Assembly (NCBI GenBank): GCA_043228905.1 | Contig: JBHGNT010000003.1 | Span: forward strand, 10,974,001-11,038,000 | Direction: 5' to 3' | DNA: 64,000 nt | Source: Azolla caroliniana | Lineage: Eukaryota > Plantae > Polypodiophyta | Notes under the pieces: generated by a model | The model's input: only the letters and a program-made list of their open reading frames with translations | Databases searched by the model: none | Told to the model about the DNA's origin: nothing | In this document: one piece after another, positions 21,094-59,051 of the stretch | Numbering within the stretch: the first letter of the stretch is position 1 | Layout: each line of letters starts with the position of its first letter | Made by a program: the position numbers and the translations under genes

Positions 21094-21545
21094 TGTTAAT
21101 CGTAGGCTAGACAAGACAATAACATAGGGTGTCCTTCCAGAACACCTCACCAAAGGGGTGGTATGGTAAGGAATGGAAAGACCGTAACACAGAACCGATA
21201 CTCTCCTATTGTTATCCGGATCGATTAGTTACACGTGTAGGATCAACATGATTAAGCACAGGACGGAAATGACAGGATAAACAAGATATGAAAATAACAA
21301 CACTTCTCTATTAATTATCCTTCCTTAGTTACATCATATCCGAATCCTTTTATAGGTATCTGGCTGTGTTACAAATTGTTGCGAACCGGCAACCGGCTAT
21401 GAACCGGTCCGGATCCGGATCCGGATCGGCATACCGATTCCAGGTCCATCCATCCGATCTTATAATTATAATAATTAATTCTAATTACAACTCCCTTTAT
21501 CCCAAAACTGGCTCCCCTTTCATACTTTGGCCTAACTGGCCAACA
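21094..21545 (-). mobile_element. LTR of a Tat-like element (strand assigned from TATA and R/U5 polarity)
   Basis: TGTT...AACA ends. cctataaaagg on the minus strand at 21346-21356. Adjacent tRNA-complementary site at 21548. Confidence 0.7.
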
Positions 21546-24193
21546 GATGGCACGCCCGTGGGACAATACCTTGTATGTCGAACCCACAGGTTAGCCCCTT
21601 CACCCATTCTTCCAGAATGTCCAGAATACTTCGGTCCAAGGGTTCCAACGGTTCATCGGGTAGTTGCTCCATCTGCTTCTGTTGTTGTTGCTATGATTGT
21701 TGTTGTTGTTGCTATTGTGGTTGTTGTTGCTCTCCGGCCTGATACGCTCCCTACTCTATTGGTCTCGGCGCCTCCGGCTCTGGTTCCTCCGTCCTTGGCT
21801 TCTCCCGTTGCTCCCGTTCTGCTTTTGCTGGTTCTTCTGGTCTGGCTACTTCCAGCTACTCCACTCGGGCTTCGTCTGGCTGGCCTCCTCTAGTTCCGGC
21901 TACATTCGGTGGCTCCTTCAGAGATTGCTCTTCGTCACTTATGTTGATTGCCGCCGTCATTTGCGATGCCACCTGCCATCTACACTCCCGCTCATACCAC
22001 TCAAATTGGAGTTGAGTGGCAAGCTAGTCATCATCCAACTGTTCTACCAACCACCTCCCAACCACCAATTGTTCTCCTGCTAGGGACAAGAAATCGTCCC
22101 AATGCTCTCCGCATCCATCTTGTCGAAGTTGTCACCGTCCTTCCTCCGGTTCTCAGCATCCACTCACAGAGTCTATAATTCCATCGCCTGTTGTGCCCAT
22201 TTTGACCACCATTGTACTAAGCTTTCATCAATCATACTCTTTGTCCTTTCTTTCCATGCTAGGACAATGGCGCGGATCCGGTTGAGCCCTATCTTGGATT
22301 TGTCCTCCGCAACCTGCTTTTCCTCCTTTAATTTCTTTATCAAGCCCGCGGTTGCCTGTGCTTGCACCCCGTATTCAAGCAACTGGGTTTGATACGTTGT
22401 CTGAACCCTATTCAGTGCCAATCTTGCTCGTTTCATCTCTTCATAGTACTGTTCGGTGAGCACCGTCCTTTCTCTTGCCAGTTTGTCTAGTAGCTTTGCC
22501 GACTCAACTGCCTTCGTTCGTTCTTCTGCCAAAGCCTCCATTTTCTTGGTTACTTCATTCTGGAGTTCTCTTATCTTCTCCTGTTGCCGGTCACATTCAG
22601 CCATCAATTTCTTGAGCTCTGCTTCCAAGTGTTTGTGATCCCGGTGCAGTCTTTCAAAGTCCTCAGTCTTTTGATTTAACCTCTGGTTGATCTGACTTCT
22701 TGCTCGGCCTTCTCTGTCTTTATGTTGTCGGAGTTCTTCTTTCAGTTGTTCAATCTCTCCTTCTGCCATCCGATGCAGCTTGTCTTTTTCTTGCAGCAGT
22801 TTGTCTTTTTCCTCTTTTAACCAGTTGTTGGCTGCCTGAGTCTTTTGGAGGTTTTCTTCTATTTTTCACTTCTCCTCCTCCATTGTCTTCTTCACCTCCC
22901 TGTCTCTGGCCCCCAAGGCCTCTTGAGCTGCTAACTCCTCCCTTAGGTTGGAGAGTTCTTGTTCGCGCACATTACTTGTGTCCGACGCTGTAGGAGCCAC
23001 CGGGGTGTTATTTATCTGTTCAGTCACCGGTGCCATCGGTTCTGGTCCTGTTGGTCCCGAACTGACCTGTCTAGCCGCGTCTGCTTTGGCCTTCTCAATT
23101 TCTTCCTCCATGCTCCGGATCCTCGACCGGGCTTTCTCGAGTTCCTCGGTTGTGGCGAACAACCGGTCCCCTTGTGCTCTCTTTTTGGCTTCAATTTGGC
23201 TTACCACCCTAGCCACCTGCTCCCCGATCCAACGCAACCATTGACTACCGGTGCCTTGTTGTGGTGTCCGCTCTAGTGTCACCTGAAGCTCTTGTTGTAC
23301 TGTTGTCTCTAGTAACAACTCCTTTTCTTGTTGTGCCTGTCAACCTGGTGAGGTAGGTAGTTCTATCACCGGTTCTGGTAGTACCGGTGCCACCGCTTCT
23401 GGCCGAACAAGCCCGGTCCGGTCTCTTGCCTTGGCTCTCATCCCTTAGAGCGGGGAGTCGGTGTGCTGTCCTCTACCAGACCTGATTCGTCCCCTTGCTG
23501 CTCCGCGTCGCTTCTCTTCTGGCGACGTAGGAAATTGTCGGCGGGTTCTTCCTCCGCCTCCTCCTCTTGTGTTCCGATGTTAATTCTTTGAGCCAAGGTG
23601 GGTGGATCTCACTCATGCCACCGCAACTTAATTTTAAGAGGCTTTACCGGTGGTTCTACCAGTGCCTCGGTCTCCACCTGTCGCTTCCGGCTGGGCTATT
23701 CCTTTTCCTTCTGTGCCGATCCTCCCTCTATCCAATCGGGAGTGTGCTTGGCGAGGAGTTGTTTCCACTTCGAAGGCTTGTTTGGCGTTGCATCTAGTGA
23801 ATGTTAACGTGGGGAAGCATTAGACAGAACTGGCTCATCCGGATAGTAATAGAGAATACGATGAAGGTTTAATGGAGAAGCTTAATACACAGGAGAGACA
23901 CAGAGAGCAGAACATAAATGTTGATTCAAAATAACTCTAAAACACTGTGCATACAATGTGCTATAACAACACTATTTATATAAGGTCCATAAAGGACTGA
24001 CTGAAGTACTGATAGGTACTTAAATATTCCTACGTGCGACTGACACTAACTACGAGACAATGATTACCTAGTAGTCTAGGCTAATACTAGGATTTTGGTT
24101 CTCGCTCGAATCCGGCTCTCCGATCCGGCCGGTTGTTTCTGGAAACCATCCGGATACCGATCTGGCTCATTCTTATGCATGCCAATCTGGCTC

Positions 24194-27100
24194 TATCAGG
24201 AGCAGTACTAAGACAGAGAAGTACTGTTAGGAATAGCACTAAGACAGAGAAGGAATTAGTACTAAAAGATGAGGATTAGTACTAAGGGAGGTGTAGAACT
24301 CTCAAGAGAATGAAAGAGTGTGTGAGAGAGAGAGATAGAATGAGGATAACAAAAGATATATATTATGTTAAGGGAATATCCAATAGTAGCTAGGAGGCTT
24401 AAGACTGGCGTTGAACCGATTTGGTTCGAAATAATGCCTTGTGCCTCCTTTTATAGTGTTCTCAAGAGTAATCCTGAAGTTTCTAGAATGTTCTAGAGAA
24501 ATCTGGAATATACATCAATTTTCTATAGTAAAACTTAAATGAAAATAATATCCCTCATATTACAATACATAGCCTAATGGTAAGAGCTCGACCCGTGTAA
24601 CATAAGGTCATGGGTTCGAGCCTTGTCATATCATGTCACTATCCTCCCTTTAAAACGACGAGTGTCACGAGTCATTTTGGATTGAGGATCCGGTTTGTCT
24701 GGATATTGACGATGGAAGTCTTCAAGAAGAGCACGAGCATTGGTCACATTCTCTATCGGTTCCCAAGTACACTCGTTGGGACTTTATCCTAGCCAATCGA
24801 CTATATCCTAGCCAATCTTTGGAATCGAGGATGGAGGCGACCTCGTACTTAGGTCCATCTTCAAGTTCGATCGGGGGTGGAGGTGGTTTAATACGACCTC
24901 GGATGGTGCTGTCCTGATAGGGTTCTTGGAGAGAACTATGGAACACCGGATGTATCTGTAGCTGCGGAAGTAGACCGAGACGAAAAGCGACATCATTAAT
25001 CTTTCCAATAATACAGAAAGGACCTAATCGCCGATATTCGAACTTCTCGCATGGGCGAGTAGTCTTGATGTGTCGTCGTAGTAGCCACACCCGATCTCCA
25101 ATGTCAAAACTAGATGGAAGCCAATGACGATCCGCGTAAACCTTGTGTGTTTGTTGAGCTTGCTGGAGATGAGTAGATAAATCCGCTTGTATCTTACATA
25201 GCTGCTCCAAACCATTCTCTGCACAGGGATTTATAGGTAACTCTAGGGTTTCAAATACACACCACTGGGGGTGACAACCCGTGTAAGCATAAAATGGTGT
25301 CACCTTTGTTGATGAGTGGACAGAGTTATTATATGCAAATTTGGTGAAGTGGATAATATCCACCTAGTCATCTTGATGATAGCTTAAAAAGCACCGAAGA
25401 TACTGCTCCAACGTTTGATTTGTTCGTTTTGCTTGGCTGTCTGTTTGTGGGTGGTAGCCGGAGGAGAGGTTACAAGTCACCTTAAGCATTTTAAAGAGGT
25501 GCTTCCAGAACTTCGAGACGAACTGGGGTCCACGGTCACTGATGATACTATTGGGAAGGACATGATGCAGACATACTTCACGCATGACAATTTCGACGGT
25601 TTCTTCACTAGAGATTTCCTTAGTACATGGCAGGAAATGGGCATCTTCGTATATCAATCTACTGTTGTTAAGATTGCATCGAATCCCTTAGAGACCGGAA
25701 GATTTGTGATGAAATCTAGGGCAATGGATTGTCATGGCTTCCTTGGAATTGGTAATGGTTCTAATAAACCATATAGATGATGCCTTGGCATTTTTGCTCT
25801 ACAACATGTATCACAAGTCCGAACAAAATCTTCGACAAATTGCCGCATATGGGGCCACCAGAATAATCGTTGTATTAAATGTAGTGTTTTAGTACTACCA
25901 AAATGCCCAACTGTATATGTGTCATGATAGTTTTGGACTACTTGAAGGCGACAAGTACCATTAGGAACATACAAGAGTTTCTTAAAGAATAGTAATCCAT
26001 CATGACATTCGAATTGTTGATAGTCTGTACCTGATTGTTGCGATTGTGAACAAGATGCTCGAGAGGGATCAATTTGTGCTAGAATGGCTAGAGCGAAATC
26101 ATCTGCCTTCAAGTCCTCACGTATGGTATCGATAACGTGGGAATCCAAGGGCATACTAAAGACCTGCGTTGCTTGTAGTCATGCCGATCCCAAGATTTCT
26201 TGCTTTTGGTTATCGAAAGTCGGCTCGCCGGGACGCGGTGATAGATACGAGCGCCGTGATAATGCATCTATCTTCCCTTGTTGCTTCCCCGGACGAGATG
26301 TAATTTTGAAGTCGAAACGAGTGAGGAATTGGGCCCACCAAGCTTGACGTCGATTTAACACACGAGCATTCTGAGAGTAGGCAAGGTTTTTGTGATCATT
26401 GAATACGATGATTTGATGAGAAGACGCCTCTAGAAAATGCCTCCATTGCGTACAAGAGTCCACTATTGCTAATAGCTCCTTATCATGAATTTCATAGTTG
26501 ATTTCTGCAGCGTCAAACTTGCGTGAATAGAAAGCCATAGGATGTAGCTTTTCATCATCGCCTTGTTGAGGCAGAATGCTACCCAAGGCGAAATCCGACG
26601 TGTCTGCTTCAATGATGAATGGTTTTTCTGGATCAACATGAGCTAAAATAGGAGCTAATGTAAATGCCTTCTTAAGACTCTCAAAAGCCGTGTCCGTTTC
26701 TTCAAACCAAAAGAATGATTATCCCTTCCTGGTAAGTTGTGTGAGAGGGAAAACAAGCTTTGAGTAATCTTGTATGAACTTGCGGTAAAAATTGGCAAAG
26801 CCTAAAACGCATTGCACGTCTCACAATGAACGCGGAGTCTGCCACTCTACCACTATTTTGACCTTAGCTAGATCCATGGAGATGCCTTCTGAGGAAATGA
26901 CATAGCCCAAAAATTCTATCTGGTTGCACCCAAAACTACATTTTTCCACCTTTGCATAAAGACCATGTTCTCGAAGTCATTTTAGTACTAACAGTACATG
27001 AGAATCATGATCTTCTTGGGTCTTCAAATAAACCAGCAAATCATCCAAATAGATGATAAAAAAATCATCGAAGAGATCTCGGAATATATCATTTGCCATG

Positions 27101-29565
27101 TGTTGGAAGACTGCTAGTGCGTTAGTGAGGCTGAATGGCATGACCGTATACTCGAAGTGCTCGTATTTGGTTTGAAACATAGTCTTCCATTCATCCCTGG
27201 TCGGATCCGTACGAGGTTATATGCTCCTCGTAAGTCGATGTTTGTGAAGAACCTTACACCATTGATTCGTTCTAAAAGACTTGAGATAAGGGGAAGTGCA
27301 TGCCTATTCCTGATGGTGACCTTATTCAAGCCACGGTAGTCTACGACGAAACGAAGTGATCCATCCTTTTCCTTGACGAAGAAAATGGGTGCGCCAGCTG
27401 GAGATTTCAAATATTGAATGAGACCATTTGCCAAGTTCTCCTCTATATAGGCTCGAAGGACTTCTAGCTCGGTTGGTGACAAATTGTAGATCGGTCCCCA
27501 TGGTGGCTCTTTTCCCGGTTGTAAATGATGGGGCAATCATACGGTCGATGGTGAGGAAGCGTATTGGCTCGTAATTTATCGAACACATATGCATAATGAC
27601 GATACTTCTCTGGAAGTTGAATGGTGGACTCCTCTTTATTGATACGGGAGGGGTTTACCGATATTGTGAAGAGAAACATTTCTTCATTGCGTCCTTCCTC
27701 ACGCAACTGATGTAGCGAAATGGTTGCAATCTTATGAGTAGATCCTTGGGTTTGTCGACACCGTATTTCTCTTGTTCTCCAATCTATGGTTGGGTTATGT
27801 AATTCGAACCATGGTAACCCCAAAACAATGGGATGTTCTGGGATAGTAATTATATTAAATGATACTACACACACTAAGTTATCTAGGACAATATTAACGG
27901 GTTCTGACTCTTCTATAATATTTCCCGAAGCAATGGGACGACCATCAATGACTACTACAGAGGCTGGACACGAGAGTTTTTTTAGGGATATCTGATGACC
28001 TTGGGCAAAATTCCTATCCATGAAGCAAGAGTTGGTTCCGGAATCTAAGAGTGCTAAGACATGTACTAGAGGAGTACTTTTAGTACTAACCATTACTTGA
28101 GCTAAGAACACATTGCTAACTGGCTTAAAGGAAATGGAACCACTAATGCGCTGCACAGATCAAGGGTTGTCCAACGAAAAGGCTCCTATTTTGGCTGGAC
28201 TTAATCGTTTAACTCTTCTTCTAGTTGGCTTAGGATTTCAAATTTGTTTGGAAGGCTTGGGCTATTAGGACTATCAGACACACCTAGAGAAATAGACCCA
28301 GGTTTAGTACTATTAGTACTAACGGTTATTTGATTTACTTGTCTTTTCGGCCGATGGGGGCAGTTCACTGCAATATGCCCCGGTTCACCGCAATAAAGAC
28401 ATAATAGATTTGCCGTGTGTCGCTGCTTTTCTTCTTCCAATAGTGGTTCACGACGATGTGTGGTGTCGATTTCCATTGGAGTTGGAGTATTTGTTGGAGA
28501 CGTATTGAATGACTCCCTTGGGAAAGGCTTTGCTATGATTGAAGTGGAGGTGGGCTCCGATCTTGTCCTTGGCATTTGGAACTGACGTTCCAAACGTCGT
28601 TCAAAGAGACGATTATCGCATCGCACTGCACGACTGATTGCTTCTGTCAATGACTTTGGCTCATCGGGGAAAGTTAAGAGTAAATCTTTAACATCATTAC
28701 GTAGGCCAAAAAGAAATTACTCCATTAGTGCCTGGTCATCCCAGGGAATATCGGTGGCGAGAAGACGGAAATCCGCAGCATAAGCCGAGACTGGCCGCTC
28801 ACCTTGGCGCAATCTTCGGATTTTGTTGATTGCTGTTCTAACACTGTCGGTATCTCCAAAACAGGCTTTAAACTCGGTAATAAACTCTTCGAAATTATTT
28901 AACAAGGGAGGGCTTTTTTCTAACAGGGGGGCGAACCATGCCAAAGTCGTGTCACTAAGTAGAGTGCCTATTAGTCCCACTCGTGATGCATCGGTGGGAT
29001 ATTGAGAAGGATGCATTTGAATGACTAATCATACCTGATTAAGGAATCCTCTAAACTGTGATCGCGTTCCATCGAATTTCATGGGAAGGCCGATCGTGGG
29101 TTCTTTATGAACCCCTTGTGTACTGAGTCCTTGTTGTTGCATTGCTACTATGGTTGCTTTGAGCTGTTCCACGCGTAACGCTAGTTCCTCGTGTTGTTGT
29201 TGCGTCTGCTACTTCTCTAAGGAGATTTGTTAAAGCTCCCCCAACAATTGTTGATTTTCTTGTTACAATGCGAGAAACTTCTCTTTCAAGCATTGCAACT
29301 CCGAGAAAACGGATTGATATTCTTGAGCGCTAATAGTGGCCATAGTATGAGAGAAGAGAGGAATAAGAGATTAGTATGAAGGGAGGGAGAAGTAAGAAGA
29401 TGAGGGAAGAGAAGGAAGGGGAGAAAATTGGTTCAAACTGTCAAGAGCAGTACTAAGACAGAGAAGTATTGTAAGGAACAATACTAAGACAGTGAAGGAA
29501 TTAGTACTAAAAGATGAGGATTAGTACTAAGGGAGGTGTAGAACTCTCGAGAGAATGAAAGAGTG

Positions 29566-29606
<41 letters not shown>

Positions 29607-30313
29607 GATAACAAAAGATATATATTATGTTAAGGGAATATACAATAGTAGCTAGGAGGCTTAAAACTGGCGTTGAACCGATTTGGTTCGAAATAATGCC
29701 TTGTGCCTCCTTTTATAGTGTTCTCAAGAGTACTCTTGAAGTTTTCTAGAATGCTCTAGAGAAATTTGGAATATACATCAATTTTCTATAGTAAAACTTA
29801 AATGAAAATAATATTCTTCGTATTACAATACATAGCCTAATGGTAAGAGCTCGACCCATGTAACATAAGGTCATGGTTTTGAGTCTTGCCATATCATGAC
29901 ATTATTCCCTCTTTAAAACGATGAGTGTCACGAGTCGTTTTAGATCGAGGACCCGGTTTGTCTGGATATTGACGATGGAAGTCTTCAAGAAGAGCACGAG
30001 CATTGGTAACATTATCTATCGGTTCCCAACTACACTCGCTGGGACTATATCCTAGTTAATTGACAAAATAGTAGAGCTTCTTACGAACAATCTTTGGAAT
30101 TGAGGATGGCGGTAACCTCGTACTCAGTTCCATCTTCAAGTTCGATCGGGGGTGGCGGTGGTTTAATACAACCTGGGATGGTGCTTTCCTGATAGGGTTC
30201 TAGGAGAGAACTATGGAAAATAATATTCTTCGCATTACAATACATAGCCTAATGGTAAGAGCTTGACCCATGTAACATAAGGTCATGGGTTCGAGTTTTG
30301 CCATATCATGACA
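24194..30313 (-). mobile_element. Ty3/gypsy chromovirus 'Gypsy-B' (Tcn1/Tf1-sushi-like), degenerate, with an extra chromodomain-PPT segment and partial third LTR
   Basis: LTRs 24194-24638 and 29439-29901, partial LTR ~30215-30313. TSD ggctc. Gag KFDGTRSQFRGF, PR LLDSGTNS, RT YLDDLLVY, GPF motif, chromodomain YEVASILDS. No tRNA PBS. Confidence 0.92.
29568..29601. repeat. (GA)n microsatellite in the Gypsy-B 5' LTR
   Basis: About 15 GA units, versus a short run in the 3' LTR near 24324. Confidence 0.9.
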
Positions 30314-32321
30314 GGCTCAAGCTTATTCAGCTGATTCGGATCCGGTTGAGCTTGCTCGCTCAACACTCCCCCTCAAGCTCAACTTGAGGTCGGATCATGG
30401 AGTTAGTGTCTGCGACAACCGGTTCTTCTACCCAACTCCTAGCGTTGCCCCGCCTTGCTCGCGCTCCTCGTTCGGTTCAGTCCTATTTGCCCCAACCCTT
30501 CTGGTTCTGCGCACCAGGCCCATTTCAGCTCCCTCGCTGTTGCGACTCCGGCAGTTGTTGACCCGTCGGTTCCTTCGTGTTGGCATTGACTTTCGTTGCG
30601 TTCGTGTCCGGTTGGCCTTTAGTTGATCCGGCTCCTCCGAACCGAATCTAACTGTTGAAGCGAATCCGATGTCTCCGATTCGTTCCAGTCCTTGTCCGAA
30701 ATGACTGCTCCCGATTTGTTCTGGCTCTTGTTCGAGTTGGTGTTCGCCAACTCATCTTCTGGTTTCAGGCCCTTCACCACATCAGACCATGTCCGGGTCT
30801 TGGCCTTCTCCTTCCGGTCAGCTATGTCCTTCTTGACTCTGTCATTGCTGCCGTTTGTTCCGACTTGTTCGGATGTGCCGACTTCGTTCGTCGACTCGGC
30901 TTCCTTTTTCCCTTTGTCTTCCCCTTTGTTGGTTCTTCCCTTTCCGGTTCCTTGTCTGGTGCCGTCCGCAGTTTCATTGCCTTTGCCCATTATGGCACCG
31001 GTTTCTTTGCCGTTGCCCATTCTCCCCCTCAAGTGCGGCATGTTGAGATGTTGAACACCAAGCATTTCGGTGAAGTGCTACAACTTGGACGATCCGAGTG
31101 GTTTGGTGAAGATGTCGGCAACCTGCAAATCCATCTGAACATACCGAACTTCGACTTCACCGCTCAGGACCCGCTCATGCACGAAGTGATAATATACTTC
31201 TATCTGCTTCGTTCGAGCATGGAATACAGGGTTCTTGGCGAGTTGTATGTTGCTCATGTTGTCATAGTGGATCAGGATTGGGGTCGGGACCTCGATCCGG
31301 AGATCTCGCAGCAGTCGCCGAAGCTAGATGGCTTCACATGTGGCATTGGTAGCGCCCCAGTACTCAGCCTCAGTGCTAGACAAACACACTGTTGGCTGGT
31401 TTTTGCTGCTCCATGCAACAGCTGCGCTACCAAGGGAAAACATGTAACCGGAGGTGGATTAGCGATCCGATGCATCACCAGCCCAGTCAACATATGTGTA
31501 GCCGACTAGCTCTTTAGTTATACCATGCCGATATAATAGTCCTTGGTTCTTCGTGCCGCTCACATACCATAATATTTGATACGCGCACTGAAGGTGCTCC
31601 ACGGTTAGCTTCTACATGAATTGGTTGATCACATCAACTAGATAATTGATGTCGGGTTGGGTAATTGTCATGTATATCAGGCTTCCGACTATTTGTCAAA
31701 ACTGTTTCTCATCATAGGCCGGTCAGGAGTTGGGACGGAGCTTCTAGTTCCAGTCCAGGGGAGTAGAGACAGGTCGACATTCCGTCATGCCGAACTTGTA
31801 TAACATATTCAATACATAATGGCGTTGTGAGAGCAATATGCCATCGGGGGTTCGGATCACCTTGATCCCAAGAAAATATCGAAGGTCCCCCAGGTCCTTC
31901 ATCTCAAATCCGTCCGATAGCTGGGACTTCACTCGGTCAATTTCATTGAGACCGGGTCCGGTGATGACTAAATCACCTACATAAAGTAAGATGCAAACCG
32001 GACCATCCAGACCTTCCTAGATGAACAACGATGAGTCAGATTTAGAGGTCACAAACCCCATCTTATGCAACCGATGCGTGATCTTCACATTCCAAGCTCG
32101 AGGGGCTGGTTTCAGACCGTAAAGTGACTTCTTAAGCCGGCACACCGCCGACTTGTTCATCTCCGACTGAAAACCGGGAGGTTGAATCATATAGACCTGT
32201 TCTTCAAGATCACCTTGAAGAAACAAATTCTTCACGTCCATTTGGTGAAGATGGCACCCCCTTGCCGCAACAACTGCCAGTACCACACGAACCGTCGTCA
32301 TCTTCGCCACTAGAGCGAAGG

Positions 32322-35300
32322 TATTGGAGACATGAACTAACGTAACCATAAAATAATGATAAAAGATAGAAAGGAGAGAGAGAAAGAAGGGTGCCGATCC
32401 ACCCGACCACCCCCGAGCGCAGGGATCGAGACAAACTCGAGCCTCGATCGGTGTCCCATATCACCGTCGTGGCGTCGAGTCGTACCTGGTGCTGGCGCAC
32501 TCACTACAAGAGTTGATCCACCACGAAACAGAGTCTCAACGTAGTCAACAAGATGATGAAATGAGGGTAGCTAGGCCTCTTATTTATAGCGATACCCAAG
32601 GCTCCTAGCCAAGTTCACACATGGCCTAATGGGTTGTCTCAATCCCGAGGATTAAAAGTAATCCTCCACTTCTTTACACTCTCATTTAACCCTCACACTT
32701 ATCCACGTGTATAGAATACTACGGTAAACTCTCACCACGGGATATTATATGGTCATGCCCGTAAGATACTCCCCCTCTTTAAAACATTGCACTCTTGCAA
32801 TGGAAAGTTAGGGAAGGTAGTTCTGAGAGTATTTTCGCGTTCCCATGTGGATTTCTTTAGTACGTAATTTTTTTGTTTTAACATCGAGAATTCTTTCTGG
32901 TACATGTATTTTAGAAGATAATTCTTCAGAAGTAAACAAAGTTTTAGTTGTAACTGTATTGTCGCCGCAAGAACCTAGAAGTTATTTTAGACGACTCACA
33001 TGAAAAATTGGATGAATTTCAACACCATTGGGAAGAGCGAGACGATAGGCTGATGACCCAATGCGTTTGAAGACTGTAAAAGGTCCACAAAACCATGGGG
33101 CTAACTTAACACACTTACCCTTAGACAATGTCTTAGAATTGTGAGGTACACATAAAACTACTTTCTGTCCAGGGTGGAATACACAAGGTTGCCTATGATG
33201 ATCAGCATAAAAATGCGCTCTATCTTGAGCTGTTTTTATATTATCTCGTGCAATATGCAACATATCTTGCATATCCCGACGAAAGTTTTGTGTACATCGC
33301 AACTCATCTTGATGTATATTAACATCAATCGGGGCTCGTGGCTGAAAACCAAACATCAACATAAAAGGACTATATCCCGTCGATGTATGCTTGGAGCTGT
33401 TATAAGCAACTCCAAAATTGGGAGATAACGTTCCCATTTTGTTGGTTTTGCACCAACGTATGCTCAAAGCATGTCCTCAATAATTTGATTTATTCGTTCT
33501 GTCTGTCCATTGCATTGAGGATGATTCGTGGTGCTTATGCTCAATGTAGTTTTTGAAGACTTGCGTCCAAAAGTCACTAGTAAACTTTGGATCTCGATCA
33601 CTCACGATATCCATCAGTAACCCATAAAAACGAAATAACTCATCAACGAATTGGTAACCCAATTCAGGAGCTGTTACCGTGGTTTTAGTAGCAATAAATC
33701 TGGCCATTTTAGTTAGTCTATCAACCACAACCCAGATGGCATCATGGCCTTCTTAGGTGCGAGGAAGGCTAACTATAAAATCGATGGATATAGTTTCCCA
33801 CTTATTATCGGGAATGTCCAAGGGATGTAAAAGTGCTTCGGCTTTAAGTCGCTTGGCTTTGTTAACCTGACATTGGTGACATTTAGTCACATAGCTATGT
33901 ATGTCAGGGCGCATCATAGGCCAATAGAATTGAGTGGAGATTAGAACGAGTGTACGATGTATTCTAGGGTGCCCTATTGAGGGTGCATCATGGCATTAAA
34001 AAATAATTCTCTTTTTGACCTCAGGCAAATCTGGAACACAAACCTTCCCATTACGGTAGAGCAGACCGTTAGTAATGTGGAAGTATTCCTTCAACAATGT
34101 GGTGGTGTTTGTTCTAGACTCAACTCTTGCCCAGTATTTCACAAAATAACTATCATCAGGATACTTTCCTCGAATGTGATCATAAAGATCTGATGTTATT
34201 TCAATGAAGCTAAGCATGTTAACGTCACGGATGGGACTTAGTGCGATAGTGTTCATGGAACCTTTATGATATCGTATGGAAAATCGAAGTCCTAGATGAG
34301 ATCAGCCCATCGTGCCTTACAACCTTTCAGGTCTTGTTGGTCACAAAAATATTGCAAGGACTCGTGGTCCGTAGTTACCACAAAGCGATTTCCATAAAGA
34401 TAATGGCGCCATGTTTTGAGCGCATGTATAACTGCAAATAATTCCTTTTCTTGAACGGTATACCGAGATTCAGCAGAATCAAGTTTCTTACTCTCGAATG
34501 TTATTGGTTTACCATCTTGATATAAGATAGCACCTATAGCATAATCTCTTGCATCAGTTTCAACCTCAAAAGGTTTTGAAGGATTAGGTAAAAGAAGCGA
34601 AGGAGCCTTGCACACCAGGTCCTTGAGTTCCTTAAAGGTGAGGTCTAGTGTAACATTCTAGACAATAGGTTTTGTAGACTTTCGCGTTTCACCTTTTAGA
34701 AGATCAGTAAACGACGTTGTCAATTGGGAGTAATTACGAAGGGATTTTTGGAAAAACCCGACAAAACCAAGGAATGACGGAACTTCTCGAATATTCCGAA
34801 GAGTGGGCCAAAGCTGGATTTTCTCAATGCGAGAAGGATCAATTTCAACTCCTCATTCGGTTTTTAGATGTCCAAGATAAGTAATTGATTTCTTGAAGAA
34901 CTCAAATTTTGAGATCTTCGCATAAAACTGTTTGTCACGCAATGTTTGTAAAACAAAGTGGACATGTTTAGTATGTTCTTGTAATGTACGGCTATAAACT
35001 AAAATATCATCCAAGAAAATAACAACAAATTTTCCAAGTTTTTCTCCGAAAATATCATTCATTTCTTGTTGAAATGTAGCCAGAGCATTGGTCAAACCAA
35101 AAGGCATAGCCAAAAACTCATAATGGCCATAGTGCGTACGAAATGCCGTTCTAGGAACATCGTCCTCACTTATACGAATTTGATGGTAGCCAATACGGAG
35201 ATCAAGTTTCGTAAAATACCGAGCTCCCTAGAGACGGTCAATTAGATCATCAACTCGGGGCAATGGATACAAATTCTTGATCACTTTATTCAAGCGTCGG

Positions 35301-38300
35301 TAATTAATACACATACGCCATGTGCCCTCTTTCTTTTTAACCAAGAGAACTGGTGCACCCCATGGAGATTTACTATAACGTATATAACCCATTCGTAAAT
35401 AGTCCTTGAGTTGCTTAGATACCTCATCCTCTTCGGATTGACTTAAGTGATAAGGAGGTATACTTATTGGTGCAACACCAGGTACAATATCTATACGATG
35501 GTCTATATTACGTTTAGGAGGTAACCCATCACGTAGTTCACTTGGAACAACATCATGAAAATCATTTAAGATTTCATCAAGTTGTTGTTGTTCAAAATAT
35601 GTTAATTGAACCGGGACATTATCGATATTGTAAACGTGAATGTCCGGATCAAGAACACAATAAAATAACGTAGAACAAGACAACTCGGATATTGATGGAC
35701 ACGAGGAAACAATCGAGAGGGATTGTTTTTTTACACATTAAATAAAATGCGTACAATCGTTCAGTACAAAAGAAATGGAATGGCGAACCCAATCAATAAA
35801 TAAAGATGAGTTTTTATTATAAAACCAGGGATAACCCAGTATTACATCGGTGGTACAAAGATTCATTACATGGAAGTCTACTTCCTCTATATAAGTATCA
35901 ACAGAAATTCCTAATGAATGAATCACCCCGTTGATGTATTGTACTCTTCCATCAGCCAAGTGCACTGTGTAGGTGTGATCACTTACGGTGGGTTGGATTC
36001 CCCATATCTGAACCAAACGATCATTCACAAAATTGTGTGAGCTTCCAGAATCAAATAAAAATTGTACGGGAGATCCATTGATATACCCGTTTCCACGTAG
36101 TAAATCATTGGGACCCAATACATAGTGAGGGAAAGAACATTGACAATTACTTAAATAATGTGTATAGACCTGAAGGACATTAGGAATCTGACCTTTATGG
36201 TTTGCATCTTTAGCTTTGTTGTCGTGCTCTTTCTGTTGGAGCTTTCAACATTAGTCTTTTGTATGTCCCTTCTTGTTGCGGAATACGCAAAAAGGATGTT
36301 GTCGCTTACAATCACGATCCATGAATTCGTTGGGTGTCTTGCATTTCCCAACGAATTGTGATTGCTTAGTCCCGGGTGCTTCGTTGGGTTTGTTGTGGTC
36401 CTTTTTCGAAGTGAGTTGATAGCGAAGAACTATTGCAACGGCCTCTTCGAAGGATTTTGGATCCTTATTGTGCACTATCTAGTGATAGTCTGAATTGGGG
36501 ATGCCATTGACAAAACAAGCTATCAACCAATTGTCCCTTTCTAGACCCGACTTTTGGATTTGGGTTCTAGCATGGTGAACATAATCTTCTAGCGAGGAAA
36601 ATTTCCTGCTAGAGAGGTTCATTAAAGCTTCTGGTGCCTTGGTTCGAGAGGGAGGTTGCAGAAATTGGCCCATGAAAACTGTGACAAAATCTGTCCAGGT
36701 ATCAGGCAATTTCCCCAAAGTTCGGAGCCCACGTCACCAGGCGGCGGCCTTACCCCCTAGTTCTCGGCCGACATATGCAATCTTCATACTATCTGGCGTG
36801 GGATAGAGCTCAAAATGAAATTCCCATTGGCCCAACCACGTGCAAATTGCTTCTTCGGTTCTTTCCTTTTTTTCTCCCATAATGGCTTAACGACAAACGA
36901 TGCTTCATCCTATCCCTCATCAGGTCTATTAGTCTCACGTTGTAAACTAATGACACGTGCCTCGAGAGCACTTTGAGATTGCCGAAGGTTTGTCATCTGT
37001 TGAGCGGTGAAATTAAGGTATTGGGTTATTTGCGAAAAATATATCTCAATGGACATTTGTCTAGGAGGATTCCCTTGAGTTCCTTCCACTTGAGCGGATG
37101 ACATTGGGTTGTTAGTTTGAGCCATTGAATGATTATTTTTGGCAAAGAAATAGGATAAGGTCAGCCAAATAGTCATAACATCATGTCAGGATGTAAACAT
37201 GTCATGGGCAAACATTAATCGATATCATGATCTCACGTCAATACCCCTCTAGACGTATGAGATGAGGTTCAAGATAAGGTTACTATGGTAACACTAAGGT
37301 GTTTTAAAAACCATGGGGGTGACAAATAAATGTCTTTCCTTGATATCTATATCGATTTTTTTCATGGCGGCTCCCCGAGGCTCAACCATGTATGTTCGCG
37401 TCATGAATAGTTTATACACGAAAAAAATGTTAACAATAAACTATGTTTCGGTGCCCACATATGTGGTTTCGGCTCTTTAAGTCCTATTACGAGGACCCCG
37501 AAGTGCACTTAGACCTCAAGTCTAAACATGTGTTATAGTCATATGTATCAACGATGTTGTATGGTCTTGGTTATATTTGGACTCGAGACCTCGAGAACAA
37601 TTGCATTAAACACTTAAGCTAACCAATTAGGTTGCTCTTTTTGAATGTTTAATGTTTCATGTGTATAAGAGATATGCAAGGCATTTGCCCATATATGTAT
37701 TTTTAAAAGAAACATATATGTCAAGAGTCCTTATTTCCCCCTCGTTTACCACAAACTTTGTTGGTACGTTACCTAACCTCAAGTCTCGTAATTACGATGG
37801 CATACACCAAAGTGCAACCTAATGGTCAAGCCAAATGAGCCCTCTTTTCATAGTAGGCCCACGTGGCCCATCACATGGTTACGTCATTACGAATTCCTTT
37901 CATAAGAATGATCTCATGGTGGCATCATATCCATGTAATGAGGGAGGGATGTTGGATATATGTGTCATAAGAGCAATCTCACATGAAGTGGGTTAAGCCC
38001 TACGTACTCAAAAACATTGTGGCTATGATTGTTTCATTACGTAACGAAATATCGAAGTGACCAACAGGGATGTCAACAAAAAATTGTTGAAAAAGGGATG
38101 GTGAAAAAGCTATTCTCACAAAAATGTGAGGAAGGCCACCAAGATCCTTTTCTCGACAAGGACAACATTCGATAGAAATCACGTAATATCAAATATACAC
38201 ATATGTTTACTTATCACATATATACGATCAAATACGTATACATGTGACCACATATGCATACATTAAACAAATCGTTACATCAAATAGCCAGAAATGATGT

Positions 38301-39266
38301 AATCAAGATACGTAATCGAGGCATATACCCTGTACGCAAACAAAACATCCAAAAATAGTGGTTCATCGTGATACACAATTCAGGTATTGACCTCTTACGC
38401 ATACGAGACCAAACGCACATCATTTACAATGAAATCGAGGTATTGACCTCATATGCATACGTAACATATGTATGTGAGCATAATTCGCAATTGAGGTATT
38501 AACCTCGTGCACATACGACATTAATCACATATTCAATATATGTCAAATGAGGTATTGACCTCATACACATATTTAAACGTTTTATACAACCAATTAATTA
38601 CCACTACAACATCATTGAATTAATGAAAAAAATTACATATAGACTATATACATGATTAGATGGGAGAAGGAAAAATAGAATAGAAGAAGAAGGAAAGAGT
38701 TACCGAAGTTCTTTGTTGATCGTTGTCTGGGTCAAGGCCGACCGCACATCGATCAATCACCATCAATCAAGAACACCAAAGACAACAAAAGAAACATTAG
38801 AACATGAGCTCGGATACCAACTATTAGAGACATGAACTAATGTAAGAATAAAATAAGGATAAAAGATAGAAAGGAGATAGAGAAAGAAGGGTGTCGATCC
38901 ACCCCACCACCCCAGAGTGAAGGGATCGAGAAAGACTCGAGTATCGATCAATGTCCCATACCACCGCCGTGGCGTCGAGTCGTACCTGGTGCTAGCGTGA
39001 TCGCTGCAAGAGTTGATCCACCACGAAATAGAGTCTCGACCTAGTCAACAAGATGATGAAATGAGGGTAGCTAGGCCTCTTATTTATAGCGATACCCAAG
39101 TCTCCCAGGCAAGTTCACACATGGCCTAATGGGTTGTCTCAATCCCGAGGATTAAAACTAATCCTCCCCTTCTTTACACTCTCATTTAACCCTCACACTT
39201 ATCCACGTGTATAGAATACTACGGTAAATTCTCACCACGGGATATTATATGATCATGCCCGTAACA
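32322..39266 (-). mobile_element. Gypsy-A copy 2, full-length but degenerate, in sense orientation inside Copia-A2 RT
   Basis: LTRs 32322-32766 and 38822-39266. PBS tggtatccgagc, PPT aaagagggggag. Perfect TSD gaagg. Confidence 0.95.
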
Positions 39267-41849
39267 GAAGGTCTCATCATAGTCGATTCCGTGGGTCTAT
39301 GTGTATCCCTTCGCCACTAACCGGGCCTTGTACTGGTTAACCGAATCGTCAGCATTGTACTTTACCTTGTACACCCATTTGCAACCGATCAGTTTACAGT
39401 GTCGGGGAGGGTCAACGAGGTCCCATGTGTCATTGGCATGGAGTGCCCACATCTCTTCCTCCATAGTGGCACGCCAATTTGCATCCTTTGCCGCTTCTGT
39501 GTAGCTCTCCAGCTCACGCACTTCCGCCACTTTGATCATGTACCCATAGTGATGCGCCATGTACTCATTGTACCTGTACCCCGTAACGGGGTTCTTCTGG
39601 TGGGAAGACCAGTGTAACTTGTCATCACCCGGTTTGGGGCCCTTCTTGGCCGGTTCGGACTTCATTCTCGAACATCTGCTTTTATCCTTTCCGGAGTAGG
39701 ATTCGCTCCGATCCGATTCAATATTGCCGGTTTCATATTTCGACATCTTCTTCTTCCCCTTCTCTTTGTGCGTGAACCGTCCGTCTCCTCGGTTCCTTGC
39801 GCAGGGAGAGGATGATAGAGTCTCCACTACTCGTCGGTTCCTCATCCGACTGGTCACTTTGACCCAATCGCTCGTTTGGTCGGCTAAACCGAAACAATTC
39901 CAGACTCTCTTCTAGAGTCTCAAGCTTGTCATCTTCTATCTGGGCCGGTTCAGGGTCACTGACCTCATCCTCCGGGATTGGGTCGGAGTCGGAAGTCGGA
40001 GTCGGTAGAGAGTACCATGATGCCGTCTCGTCGAACTCAACATCTTGGCTTACTCGGACCTATTTCGTCCGGGGGTTATAGCAGTTATACCCTGTTTGCT
40101 CATGCGAGTAACCGACCAAGATGCACTTGTCCTACTTCCGATCAAGATTCCTCCGCTTCTCATCTGGTACATGCACATATGCTATGCTGCCAAATATCCG
40201 AAGGTTTCTCAAATTCAGCTTGCGCCCGAAATACAACTCGTGTGCTGACACCTTGTCTCCGATCCGGTTTTGGATGTAGACGGCTGTCCGGACCGCCTCA
40301 GCCCAGTAGAATTGGGGCATGCTTTTCTCCTCTAGCATTGCCCTTGTTGGGTCAACAATCGACCGGTTCTTCCTTTCGGCCACACCGTTTTGCTCCGGTG
40401 TGTATCTGTAGCTGAATTCTCTCTGAATTTCGTTCTGTTGCAGATAACTGTTGAATTGGCCAGAAAAGTATTCTTTTCCGCCATCCGACCGCAACCACTT
40501 GATCTTCCTCCCCGTTTCACGTTCAACGAAGATTTGAAGGTTTCGGACACATTCGAAGACTTCGCTCTTCCTCTCAATGAGGTAGATCCATGTGTGCCGG
40601 CTATAGTCGTCGATGAAGGAGATGAAATACCGACTCCCGCCAAGACTAATGTTTTGTGTCGGTCCCCATACATCCGAATGGATTAAATCGAGCTTGTTAT
40701 GGCTCCGGTTTCGTTCGGTGGGGAATGGATGCCGGTGTTGCTTCCCAAGTTGGCAGTCTTCACAAATTTTGGCCTTCCGGTCGCTAAATTTCGACAAACA
40801 GAAAACAACTTGTTTCAATTGCAGGTCTTGAAGCCTCCAGTAGTTGACGTATCCGATCCGCTTATGCCAGAGATCAATGTCCAATTCAATATTCTGCCCT
40901 TTGGCAAACATGGCGGTGCCGACGTCATTAGTGTTGAGGATGAACATCCTCCCTTCTCTGCGCCCTTGTGTGATTATCTGGCCTTCTTCCTCGATGAAGC
41001 AACTGAGGTGCGTAAACCACACCTGCATCCCCTGGTCGACGATTTGTCCAACTGACACCAGGTTCTTTGTGATAGTTGTAACATGTAATACGTTCATCAG
41101 CTTCCCCCTTTGTCCGACATGGCTCAAAGGGACTTCTCCGACATGCACAATCGGGCGAGGGGTGTCGTCTCCGGTTTCGACAATCCCCGGTTGTTCCAGC
41201 TTCTCCAAAAAAGAGAACCACTCTTCATGACTCGTCATGTGGTTGGACGCTCCGGAATCAACATACCAGACTTCCTCTGATCCGGCAGTAGTCTTCTTCA
41301 TCGAGTGAGCCTTGTGCTTCATCACGAAGGCTAGCCCTTTACCGGTCTTCCCAGTTCTGGATCCTTCTGATCGTTCTGCGTAGTTCGAGCTTTGCCGGTT
41401 TTCCTGACTGGTTTTGCCGGATCCAGATTTGTCCGAATCGGTGCGGTTCTTCTAGCACTTGCTTTCCCTATGACCCTTTTTGCCACAGTACCAGCATTCT
41501 GTATCGTCTTTTCTTTGCCGGCTTTCGGCGCCGCTTTGACTCCCCCTGCTTGTGGAGAGTTCGAAATGACTGTTGGCACTACCTCTGTGCCTTCAGTCCT
41601 GCTCTTGCCGGCCGCCTCCATTGCATGCCGACCCACCTCGTCCTCCACGTCCACAGGGCCGATCTGACTCCATGTACAACATCTGACTATCCGATTCAGT
41701 GGTCCTCAACCCACTCACGTGGTTTTCTTCGACCATCAACATTCATTGTAAGTCGAAGAAGGACGGTGGCTTCTCCCGAGTGCAGATCGTTGTTCGGATT
41801 GGCCCGTACCTTTGCGGTAGACCATCGAGGTAGATTTGGACCATCTCGT

Positions 41850-42692
41850 TGTCATGCCTTTTGGCTCCGGATCGTTGCGTGAGTTGGGTGGGAACCATTG
41901 GGGTTTTGGACTAGGAGGAAATAAATTCTAAAGCAATTAAGAATGTGAAATATATTGTAAGAAAGAAAGATATGAAAAACTCGTGAATCCCATGAGTATA
42001 GTGTATTAGTGAGTACTCAAATTAAGAGAGAAAAATAGTTAGCAAATTCGTGGATCCCATGATTATATTATATTAATCAACCCTTGTAAAATAATCAACA
42101 ACCTCTATACATCTTTCTCTCTTCCTTATATAGTGTTGGAAGAGTCTAAGTTTATCACATGCAAGCATCATGCTTTTCCTATCTTTAGTTTTCATGCACA
42201 GTGCATGTGCATGATTAGCTTTCTATCTCATCTTTTCTTTTAACTCGAGTGTCTATGCATGAATAACTTTTTGTACCATGCATGTCTAGAAATTTTACAT
42301 GGGATAAAGTTTAGTATAACTTTAAAATTCATAATACGCTAGTATAATGATAAGGCTTAACATTATTAACATGGAGGTGCAAGGTTCGAATCTTGCCCTA
42401 TGCATGTAATATATAATTTTATACTTTCTTCTATTTACAAATATGTCTCTTCATCTGGTGAGAGACTCTCGCCGACCTTCTTCATCCGGCTCTTGCCGGT
42501 TCTGCTTCATCCGGTTCTCGCCGGTTCTCTTTATCCGGTTCTTACCGGATCCTCCTTACCGGCCCTCTTCGTCCGTTTCTCACCGACTCTCACCGGCCTT
42601 CTTCATACGGCTCTTGCCGGGTCTCCTCCATATCCTATCCGGAGAAACAAAAAATGTAATTTTTCACGTAGTGTGCGAATTACACTACGACA
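41850..42692 (-). mobile_element. Solo LTR (type D) of the tRNA-Trp-primed gypsy family, inserted in Copia-A2 gag
   Basis: TGTC...GACA ends and 4-bp TSD tcgt. Removing it restores gag MDEDEMVQIYL. Homologous to 57546-58389. Confidence 0.9.
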
Positions 42693-44255
42693 TCGTCTTC
42701 GTCCATTGTAATGTTGATGGACCCGAGTACGTCACAAATCTCCTTTATCTTGGTGGTGTAGTTTGTAACCGACATGTCTCTTTGCCGGATGTTGTTCAGC
42801 TCTTGCCGAAGTTGCAACTTACGGGTTGTGGTACTCACGGTGAAGATCTTCTTCAGATTTCCCCAGGCCTCCTTCGGCGTTTTTACATCCTTTATGTAGC
42901 CAAGCATCTGGTCGTGCACACAGGATGCGAGGAAGTACAATACTCGACTCCCTCCTTGCTCCCCTATTGGGAAGTCATTGTGTGCCGGCTCCGGCGCTAC
43001 CTCGTTCGTTCGTTCCACGAAGCTCCAATATCCATACCCAGCAGGTACTAGTGCATTTTATATGACCAGGACGCGTAGTTGCTTCGGTCGAGCTTCTCTG
43101 TGGGAAGTGAACTCACCATACCTTTGTCCATATCTTCTCTTTGTCTATTGTTATCGGGTTCTAGGGTTCGTCTTCAAAAGCAAGTGTGAATATTAACGTG
43201 CAGAAGCATTAGACAGAACTGGCTTAGCCGGATGGCAACAGAAAATAAGATGAAGGTTTAATGGAGAAGCTTAACATACAGAGAGTATACACAAGAGAGA
43301 CAGAGAGAGTAGAATGCAAACGTTGATTCAAAATAACTCTAAAACTCTATGCATACAATGTGCTATAACAACACTATTTATACAAGGTCCATAAAGGAGT
43401 GACAGAAGTACTGACAGGTACTTCAATATTCCTACGTGCGATTGACACTAGCTACGAGACAATGATTACCTAGTAGTCTAGGCTACTACTAGGCTTCTGG
43501 TTCCTGCTCGAATTCGGCTCTCCGATCCGGCCGGTTGTTTCCGGATACCGATCAGGCTGATCCTTCCGGATGCCGATTCGGCTCAGGCTTATTCAGTTGA
43601 TCCGGATCCGGTTGAGCTTGCTCGCTCAACACATCCGCTGGTTGGCCCTGCTTCTTCGGCTTTATTGTTGGCACTAGTGGTGCGAGGAGGCTGAGCCATT
43701 GGGCCACCGTTGTCCATACTTTTTTTCCATCCACTACGGATTGGATGGCCACTCTCAGAGAATCGGCGATGATTGCGGGGGGTCGGGGTGCATGAACCAT
43801 ACTCGTGGAGCACACGAGCCACTTCTCGGAACAAGGCGTCATCACCGCCCTCTGTCCTGTATGCTCTACTGGCAAGGGAGTACTCGCCGAAGAACTACAT
43901 CAACGTCTCTGGGGAAGGATTCTCAATAGAGTAGATCCCTCCCTCCGGCAATCAGATTAAGGCACGGATAGCCTCCTCTGTTATTTCCTCTAGGTTGATC
44001 TTTTTTGCGACCTTTTCCGGTTTGTCGTGGGGAGGTGCTTTTCCTATTCGAAGAAAACTCTCCAATCCATGTTTTGTAAACCATTTCTTCGCAGTCTCGG
44101 AGAGCGCAATGGGCTCCAATGTGGCGTCTGCTTCGGTGGTGGTGGTAAGCTTTGGGGTGCCTGCGGTAGATTCTTGCGTTCACCTGATCACCTGTATCCG
44201 CTTCTGTGTGCTAAGTGCTCTATGTTCGCGAAATGAGAGAGACTCTATAACGTCG

Positions 44256-47023: not shown

Positions 47024-47547
47024 TGTTACCCGTAAGAATATACGGGGAGGCATAAGGGTATGTGTAAAGTAAATGAGTATGTGAGGATGAGTATGTATGA
47101 GCACATGCACAATTATGTGCATGTGACAAGAATGTAACAGTCATATTATTAATCGTTACACTATGTACTATATAAACCCCTAATGGGGCATGTAATGGAA
47201 TATACATTTTTCCCCTCTCATTTTGTGTCACTTTCAATTTGTCTTTCTCTCTAGCTCTCTCACTATCCTAGAATGGCTTCACCCCCCACCCCAACAACAC
47301 TTTTGGCATGGTTGAATGGCCGACCCTCCCTTGAGAGGAAGTCTATCCCTCACTCGCCCTCTCCAACACAAATGTCTCTCTCCATCTTTGTGTGTTCGTT
47401 TGTGTCTGTGTCAGAGAGTATCGTCGTTTGTCTGTGTAATCTCTATGTTGAGAGCCTTCTTGTGTTCTCCTTTCTCTACCTTGTTCAGAGGAACCTATTC
47501 AGTCCTCATGCAAATTCATTCATAAGCACACCACAGGGAATGTTACA
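47024..47547 (+). mobile_element. Putative LTR of an unidentified family
   Basis: tgttac...gttaca ends, ctatataaacccc TATA, followed by a degenerate gtgtatca. No partner LTR or TSD found. Confidence 0.35.
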
Positions 47548-49170: not shown

Positions 49171-49607
49171 AAGAGCGAAAAGCTCAAGGTCAACAAAGCC
49201 ATCGAGAAAGGGAACATGGATGGAGATCGGATCTATGCCGAGAATGCGATTCGTATGAGAAACAAGCAGTTGAATTATCACGCCTCGATGCAATGATATC
49301 TCGCCTCCATACACAGAGCAATATGCAAACCATAAACTAATCCATGGATTAGTTTGAACATATGTTTGTCAATATGGAGGTCAAGGCTGAGTTTGTTGAG
49401 CTGGCCATGGTTGGAAGCACATCTCTTTCTAACCCTGAAGATCAAGTTAACTGTCTTATGAAACAAGTTGTGGATGATTATGGCCTTGAGGTTTCTGTTG
49501 GTCTTCCTCAACCTGCCGCTGCGTCTCATGTTGTAGCAGAAGAAGATAACGTTTCTGTTATTGAAGATGATCTGAGTCAGCGCCTTCCAGAGTGGAAGAG
49601 TCGGTGA
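49171..49607 (+). pseudogene. CHMP1: CHMP1/VPS46 (ESCRT-III) gene fragment with stops and two internal deletions
   Basis: [27 protein letters not shown]...SRLDA...[10 protein letters not shown]...GSTSLS...[14 protein letters not shown]...EDDLSQRL matches plant CHMP1 as I recall it. Confidence 0.88.
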
Positions 49608-52747: not shown

Positions 52748-52801
52748 AGCGGACTGTTGCGGAGTGGGGAAGTGATAGTCCGAGAAGCCCTGATACCCCA
52801 C
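52738..52801 (+). promoter_or_regulatory. Putative -1 ribosomal frameshift signal (slippery GGATTTT plus H-type pseudoknot)
   Basis: G GAT TTT TAA ends gag-PR. Stem 52750-52760 pairs with 52772-52782; loop gtgggg pairs with ccccac at 52796-52801. Confidence 0.72.
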
Positions 52802-56337: not shown

Positions 56338-56345
56338 CCAAATGA

Positions 56346-57506: not shown

Positions 57507-57541
57507 AGAAGGTTGCGTGTTCGTTCACGTCGGGTTCACCA
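57507..57541 (-). promoter_or_regulatory. Extended PBS complementary to the 3' half of tRNA-Trp
   Basis: The + strand reads agaaggttgcgtgttcg-ttcacgtcgggttcacca, the plant tRNA-Trp 3' half with CCA and lacking A58. Confidence 0.8.
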
Positions 57542-58310: not shown

Positions 58311-59051
58311 GTTCTCACCGAGCACTCCATTCTCTATCCGGAGGGACAAAAATATAATTTCCACATAGTGTGCAACCTACACTACGACAGCGCATACACT
58401 TAAGGCCAACTGCACGGAGAATGTTCCGGACCAAGAGGAACCGCAACACCACTCCCCAGAGCGTACAACGATGGCCAACATCACGGAGGAAGTGACGGAC
58501 GAACCAGAGCCGCGACCTACCGCAAGTCTGCGGGCCGACATCACGGAGGAAGTGACGGACGAACCAGAGCCACGACCTACCGCAAGCCTGCGGACGGTTG
58601 AACCAAACCCCCTAGCCCAAGAAGAGCCCACAGAACCCGGACTGCCCACATAGGATGACTACGACACCATGCGAAGCCCTCCGGACCAAGCAGGGGAACC
58701 ACACAACGACACGCCTACAAGCCCTACGCCGTCCCCGGACACAAACACCGTAGCAGAACCAAACATCAGGGCCATTTTGGATGAAGATTAAAGGGATGGG
58801 TCCGACATGCCATGGCATTGTCCCACCGGCGTGCCAGGTGTTGTCCGCCAGAATAGTAATCGACGGACAAGAGCGTAGTAACATGGAATAGAGTAATATT
58901 ATAACGCATGTAACGGTTCACGCAGGAAGCGTGAATGGCTAAAAGATCCTGCGTATATAAAGGGCAGAAAACCTCTAATAGAGGTAGCGTGTAATTTTAA
59001 ATGTAAAAGGCGTATCTTAATAGAGTTCTATCTTCTCTGATATCTATGCAT

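Follow-up and report, generated by a model that had tools for sequence, protein, structure and literature searches.

A tRNA 3'-end sequence in place of the polypurine tract in a lineage of Ty3/gypsy retrotransposons

In the available text of two sources, priming of the plus strand from a polypurine tract (PPT) is treated as general in retroviruses and LTR retrotransposons (PMC5371799, PMC7197481). Ty3, as far as the former describes it, primes its minus strand with a tRNA at a primer binding site (PBS) after the 5' LTR, has the order gag-PR-RT-RH-INT and is expected to start its plus strand just upstream of U3. The elements studied here resemble it in all three respects; however, where Ty3 carries a purine-rich, RNase H-resistant PPT, they carry a copy of a tRNA 3' end. 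Second or bipartite tRNA sites are known from Ty1 and Ty3 (PMC5371799) and from Drosophila gypsy (PMC1635307). Within the accessible parts of these papers, such sites, as part of the genomic RNA, complement the tRNA and aid the minus-strand primer, and the map of gypsy retains a PPT (PMC1635307), whereas the 3' site of the present lineage, which has no PPT, is of tRNA sense, ends in CCA and could pair with a tRNA only as minus-strand DNA. No description of such a site was found in the literature searched, subscription papers lying outside its coverage.

Here we report that the PPT has been replaced lineage-wide by a tRNA-end site in a Ty3/gypsy clade. Decayed copies of this lineage, which is a non-chromovirus Ty3/gypsy lineage, lie in the window, i.e., the whole 64-kb stretch of Azolla caroliniana DNA that was analyzed (Table 1).

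The window copies and their relatives

The original prediction, made from the letters of the window, had placed two 17-mers resembling a tRNA-Arg primer site 2 nt from an LTR. Both coordinates were correct, the adjoining LTRs start with TG, and the two 17-mers are the sole matches in the window at up to two mismatches (mean in shuffles, 0.01). It also held that the TATA box and a long adjacent open reading frame (here, the extra ORF) run opposite to the strand on which the 17-mer reads as a PBS, and indeed both are on the minus strand in copy 1 and both on the plus strand in copy 2. The ORF does exist on the TATA strand but is broken: it carries stops and frameshifts and, in copy 1, is interrupted by a nested copia block of ~20 kb (23798-43631) with a near-matching 5-bp target site duplication (TSD). 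Similarly, the layout said to recur at copy 2 was borne out for the site, the TATA motif, the ORF and their plus-strand sense, but the copy's own LTR is a fragment followed by a foreign one (59050-59689), which belongs to an unrelated Phygy-like family with further copies near 41849 and 57546. Copy 2's extra ORF has its left part before 50046, on the far side of a Phygy-like insertion flanked by the TSD GCGC. Both copies are without gag-pol. The LTR of a third member, at 47024, begins with TG and is not preceded by a tRNA site.

Table 1. Features of the PPT-less lineage in the window
Feature	Position	Strand	Remark
Copy 1, 3' LTR, 452 bp, TG...CA	21094..21545	-	U3-R-U5 in minus sense; TATA box 21347-21354
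Copy 1, 2-nt spacer between CCA and LTR TG	21546..21547	-	TC in window
Copy 1, sense copy of tRNA 3' end (T-stem 3' strand, acceptor 3' strand, CCA)	21548..21564	-	
Copy 1, 4-bp hairpin, inserted at T-loop position	21566..21576	-	
Copy 1, T-arm box, tRNA positions 49-58	21578..21587	-	
Copy 1, extra ORF, 3' part, broken; coiled coil, acidic tail	21604..23797	-	
Copy 1, extra ORF, 5' part, beyond nested copia block	43632..44128	-	Matches P0003 residues 98-285
Third member, 5' LTR (47024 to ~47299), L030 family	47024..47313	+	Decayed PBS at 47304
Copy 2, extra ORF tail, ends ...ILDED-stop	58391..58791	+	Stop 58789-58791
Copy 2, site: T-arm box 58796-58805, hairpin 58807-58818, tRNA 3' end 58820-58836	58796..58836	+	
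Copy 2, 3' LTR fragment, L010/L059 family	58839..59049	+	TATA 58954; Phygy-like LTR cuts at 59050

The LTR of copy 1 sits inside a copia integrase gene and, over its full length, is colinear with that of a relative, locus L023, whose LTR measures 453 bp. At its 21094 end, five to six contigs with loose ends were found in each of four runs. Its spacer reads TG in nearly all run contigs (21546 G>C, 61-77 contigs per run). Summed contig depth, which is not copy number, reaches 37,000-80,000 in the bin holding the site, compared with ~300-1,100 in the next bin of the ORF, so that far more contigs carry the site than its flank.

Other residents of the window, a nest of plant LTR retrotransposons of copia, chromovirus and Phygy-like gypsy type, include a block at 50047-58390 that begins with a near-intact Phygy-like element with LTR (50047-50671), PBS and gag-pol. 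The Phygy-like elements, together with the Riccia relatives of the lineage's RT, suggest that the host is a non-seed plant. Downstream of the near-intact element, the block also contains an inverted LTR copy (56341-56967, 99.8% identical to LTR 50047-50671), which terminates a short element on the opposite strand whose 5' LTR differs (57546-58390). A single TSD, GCGC, brackets the whole block, which may be a product of inversion-type autointegration or of an LTR swap. An RT/RNase H fragment of the PPT-less lineage (59689-60018, minus strand, 74% identical to polyprotein P0010) adjoins a Phygy-like LTR; the flanks of this LTR lack the match expected of a TSD, pointing to a recombination event that joined two insertions. 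At 49140-49610 on the plus strand lies an intronless, broken copy of a host gene, possibly a retrocopy; from a motif in its translation, we take it to resemble CHMP1/VPS46 (ESCRT-III). Positions 1-1300 form a tandem array whose ~105-bp units are broken up at 140-594 by a solo gypsy LTR. A sigma-70 promoter scan was set aside as irrelevant to a plant LTR.

Relatives were collected by scanning metagenome contigs with a pattern made of the 17-nt core and the 2-nt spacer, which gave at least 120 loci. Since this pattern required the site, members with a normal PPT could not surface among them, and conservation of core and spacer in these loci is circular. TGT follows in 106 of the 120 matches listed; the other 14, without TGT start, T-arm and hairpin, were set aside as chance matches. 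Among the matches listed, homologs of the extra ORF lie upstream of the site and share its sense in 35 loci, with no antisense case, gag and integrase lie on the TATA strand in all six loci that hold them, and a TATA motif is found in sense in 41 and in antisense in 7 of 44 LTRs. Matches to the lineage's polyprotein on the antisense strand were absent from the at least 120 loci. One locus, L008, presents on a single strand a gypsy integrase (rve, E 1e-13) upstream of an intact extra ORF of 1170 aa, the site and the LTR, as well as a PBS, and in five others (L051, L036, L059, L046 and L023) a gag region follows LTR and PBS in the same sense as the site; L059 belongs to the family of copy 2, L023 and L046 to the subfamily of copy 1. 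Contig paths that lead from site through LTR to PBS are probably two LTRs collapsed. Pieced together from partial contigs, with no contig spanning a whole autonomous element, the layout is 5' LTR, PBS, gag-pol, extra ORF, tRNA site, 2 nt and 3' LTR, all in TATA sense. Given that gag, integrase and extra ORF are on the TATA strand and that the PBS is at the other LTR, the site marks the 3' junction and not the 5' one. None of the elements came with both of its outer flanks, no clear TSD was seen at the two LTRs examined (L065, L057), and viral contigs held neither the site nor relatives.

This arrangement bears directly on the reading of the site as an ordinary PBS, in which either the ORF would be an antisense one at the 5' end or the element would package an RNA of opposite sense to its LTR-driven mRNA. 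Seen from the opposite strand, the 17-mer does resemble a typical PBS, placed 2 nt from the end of an LTR, and antisense extra ORFs are common in Retand according to the accessible text of PMC11963269. However, gag and integrase share the TATA strand in all six loci, a sense PBS with no pyrimidine tract beside it is present at the other LTR junction, and the antisense gag match in L067, to which matches in L007 and L064 are similar, comes from a nested Phygy element that has a PBS and an LTR of its own. We therefore regard an ordinary PBS as exceedingly improbable. Its version with a 5' antisense ORF is refuted on anatomy, and the packaging of an antisense RNA, which the original prediction had offered as one of two explanations, found no support, as the antisense reading yields a tRNA-end copy and no PPT at the other end. 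Likewise, the layout that the prediction had named as speaking against itself, with gag-pol on the PBS-reading strand and a PPT at the other LTR, was seen in none of the at least 120 metagenome loci.

Nine short nonautonomous elements (L014, L026, L027, L029, L031, L038, L045, L058 and L071) run from PBS to site within one contig over ~0.8-2.2 kb and keep both tRNA sites, which makes them would-be minimal substrates; some of these elements form tandem arrays with a common LTR. L058 and L069 each carry, beside an LTR of the same lineage, a second site-plus-LTR copy in inverted orientation, and in L058 one LTR abuts an inverted LTR.

The 3' site and its tRNA partners

While the predicted 17-mer is present, the full site is larger, with a length of ~40 nt, and is built from a T-arm box, a 4-bp covarying hairpin and the tRNA 3' end with CCA. 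Although the T-arm box, the hairpin, a preceding T and the TGT start were outside the search pattern, they are kept across 21 flank clusters. The T-arm box reaches a mean of 8.1 matches out of 10 (4.7 in control windows), and, among the matches listed, a T stands directly before the core in 103 of 104 sites. A perfect 4-bp hairpin stem is found in 69 of the 104 sites listed, compared with a mean of 3.5 and a maximum of 9 in shuffles, and the stems of these sites fall into ten types with changes on both sides. The core is one base shorter than the stand-in tRNA genes in every listed locus, a length that the search pattern required. Within the T-arm box, position 58 is the most variable per locus, and it is there that the hairpin sits; in the tRNA, this position is presumably m1A. 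Rfam gave no tRNA match at the site, and neither strand of the site folded better than shuffles.

Within the 30 nt that precede the LTR, no purine run is longer than 4 nt in 100 of 104 sites (among the matches listed), compared with longest runs of 6-12 in six canonical elements of the window. Furthermore, five site-free LTR copies, none of them from copy 1's own family, begin with TG after unrelated flanks. The proposal that a tRNA site has taken the place of the PPT thus fits the anatomy, with a tRNA 3' end including CCA, and no PPT, before the LTR. It is very improbable that a purine run elsewhere primes the plus strand and that the tRNA copy is a relic, or serves packaging or targeting by tRNA fragments. 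The obvious candidate is the run at 21491-21503, after which the original prediction had placed an alternative LTR start for copy 1. This run is indeed kept in the close relatives L095 and L097, and, for copy 1's own family, no 5' LTR lacking the site came to light; yet the run is missing in four sister LTRs (L023, L046, L081 and L083) that are colinear from the TGTT start and retain the site, and the five site-free LTRs of other families begin at the same TG as the 3' copies. As for tRNA-fragment targeting, a copy in sense could, we infer, not be a target on the genomic RNA.

At the opposite end of the element, 22 loci among the matches listed have a normal PBS behind the LTR; in 20 of them it is of tRNA-Arg type and fits the same tRNA end as the 3' site, and in two it is of another type. 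Covariation between the tenth base of the PBS and the matching base of the 3' site holds in 21 of 22 rows (12 G-C, 9 A-T and 1 G-T); these rows represent 20 loci from about six related families, 3 of 25 having been dropped for lack of a PBS belonging to the same element. Such covariation would be in line with one primer serving both strands, either by a tRNA linked to the 5' end of minus-strand DNA that folds back onto the site and is freed by RNase H or by the site pairing with the element's own PBS. However, the families are related, so that the covariation may rest on few events, and in L023 and L046, from the subfamily of copy 1, the PBS has only its first 4 nt in common with the complement of the 3' site, which means that the two ends of this subfamily can neither pair with each other nor share one primer. 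We consequently think a common primer quite unlikely. A loose end in the window's organism has the same PBS letters as L023 and L046. This second PBS type we take to be that of tRNA-Arg(UCG); a comparison with phage stand-in tRNAs gave a mixture of Arg, Asp and others and did not confirm this assignment. A further argument, that the PBS is recopied from its primer, was dropped, because the available text of PMC5371799 reports otherwise for Ty1 and Ty3.

Behind the PBS of autonomous families come a hairpin and a T-loop-complementary box (L008 5513-5550, L051, L059 and L023 3862-3893). This build mirrors the 3' site, and an inverted copy of an extended PBS of this kind (PBS, hairpin and T-loop box) may have given rise to the latter. 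With its hairpin removed, the site motif matches tRNA-Arg genes, including two phage genes with TCT (two of four loci). Prokaryotic stand-ins for the main site are mostly tRNA-Arg with TCG and sometimes TCT, with Arg at the match in 20 of 26 loci. The plant partner of the main site is presumably tRNA-Arg(UCU), an anticodon taken from the two phage genes and from the tRNAs of plants. Stand-in tRNA-Arg(TCT) genes show blockwise pairing to the minus strand of each window site, at -46 to -53 kcal/mol as against -32 to -38 kcal/mol for the best shuffles, a strength to be expected given that these are phage genes retrieved with a site-derived pattern and not the host tRNA. No pairing was found between these stand-ins and the sense strand of either window site.

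Candidate primers of the plus strand

Judging from sequence, we lean toward a second host tRNA that anneals to the minus-strand DNA at the site and primes the plus strand. In such a scheme, a first tRNA would prime the minus strand at the PBS, as usual, and RNase H, motifs of which are present in polyprotein P0010, would clear the RNA and expose the complement of the site on the new minus-strand DNA. The second tRNA could then pair in three blocks that add up to ~27 nt, leaving the hairpin as a loop at the T-loop position and a single base of the tRNA in a bulge. Extension of its CCA end by RT across the 2-nt spacer into U3 would reproduce the geometry of a PPT primer, after which removal of the tRNA by RNase H and trimming of 2 nt by integrase would leave 5' LTRs that begin with TG. 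In more general terms, it seems rather probable that the PPT was dropped and that both strands are primed by host tRNAs from two inward-facing sites, using two different tRNAs in some families.

Alternatively, a tRNA-like, hairpin-bearing and RNase H-resistant stretch of the element's own RNA, cut after CCA like a tRNA primer, might prime the plus strand with no second tRNA, which we consider unlikely, if less so than a common primer, a purine run elsewhere or an ordinary PBS. Its 2-nt geometry equals that of the PPT, the sense RNA is able to form the T-stem, and the RNase H of Ty3 selects the PPT by local shape, according to the accessible part of PMC5371799. Two comparisons of the strands address this point: outside position 58, family-level substitutions are compatible by wobble with minus-strand pairing in 13 cases and incompatible in 16, and near-pairs in the hairpin comprise 13 G-U in sense versus 11 in antisense. 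Neither clearly favored the minus strand, as an own-RNA primer would allow, and they do not separate the two kinds of primer. Other observations speak against an own-RNA primer. In the largest clusters, G53>A and T55>C are changes that a tRNA on minus-strand DNA would tolerate by wobble, and G53>A disrupts the T-stem of the sense RNA; moreover, the 5' PBS of autonomous elements is similarly built, with PBS, hairpin and T-loop box on the strand that pairs with the tRNA, and the sense RNA folds no better than shuffled sequences (z -1.35 and -0.41).

If a second tRNA is indeed the primer, this lineage would provide the first known case of a natural LTR retroelement whose plus strand is primed by a tRNA. 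Under either leading model, RT and RNase H would have to choose the primer by an undescribed route, a choice that is made testable by a 40-nt site, natural hairpin variants and families with different 5' tRNAs. There is also a consequence for annotation, in that tools which orient elements by PBS and PPT can place such elements backwards, an ambiguity that the original prediction also encountered.

Classification and comparison with known elements

The full polyproteins nearest to the lineage, P0010 and P0012, are 74-75% identical to the integrase of L008 and encode gag, RT, RH and INT in this order in a single ORF. Neither PF13456 nor PF00075 was found in them, i.e., they are without aRH, and both domains appear in more distant matches. 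In an RT tree of 41 rows, which left out matches with fewer than 170 aligned residues and had no REXdb references among its rows, the lineage's clade of seven rows (100/97) joins Riccia elements (97/91), and nine of ten aRH-labeled rows form a separate clade (96/92). The label "Tat-like" in the original prediction therefore did not survive as a statement of membership, since aRH defines Tat in the available text of PMC6317226. Two other assignments were rejected. Retand/TatIII would bring an antisense extra ORF between pol and the 3' LTR, and that of the lineage shares the strand of the integrase in L008 and the strand of the site in all 35 listed loci with a match; for Phygy, the RT is only 25% identical to the Phygy-like RT of the window, and the lineage has an extra ORF.

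This extra ORF family (P0001-P0009, L008 1381-4893) encodes ~970-1170 aa and is intact in several families, with a conserved N-terminal domain, a low-complexity linker, a coiled coil and a conserved acidic C-terminal word. Pfam returned no informative family for it, and neither a PMD nor a Transposase_28 match was obtained. The N-terminal domain shows a weak feature likeness to ATHILA and Transposase_32 clusters (0.84, a lead only), and all Atlas matches of the extra ORF that bear a family name stay below 0.9.

Compared with the Tat elements TatIII, Ogre and Retand, as far as PMC6317226 is accessible, the lineage has in common a non-chromovirus RT, a long 3' region with an extra ORF and the tRNA-Arg PBS that is common in them; unlike Tat, it lacks aRH, its RT lies apart from aRH-bearing RTs and its extra ORF is in sense. 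Tat-like moss elements without extra ORFs are also mentioned in the available text of PMC4408406. With Athila, the lineage shares the absence of aRH and the single gag-pol ORF, both traits seen in P0010 and P0012, as well as a large 3' extra ORF, but in the same partial source Athila PBSs are mostly of tRNA-Asp type (72%; PMC6317226), whereas those of the lineage are mostly of tRNA-Arg type. Its RT groups with the Riccia elements and not with an aRH-free clade from Asteraceae and Pinus, which we infer to be Athila. Phygy differs by a tRNA-Trp PBS and, in contrast to the lineage, has no extra ORF. With respect to plus-strand priming, a parallel is offered by 3'PPT mutants of HIV-1, in which the 3' PPT is likewise lost as a primer. 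According to the accessible part of PMC13332604, plus-strand priming in these mutants falls to the central PPT, and the DNA ends up as 1-LTR circles rather than integrated. The present lineage, in contrast, has exact TG...CA ends in many integrated families, and, by integrating with such ends and no PPT, it provides a natural exception to the PPT rule.
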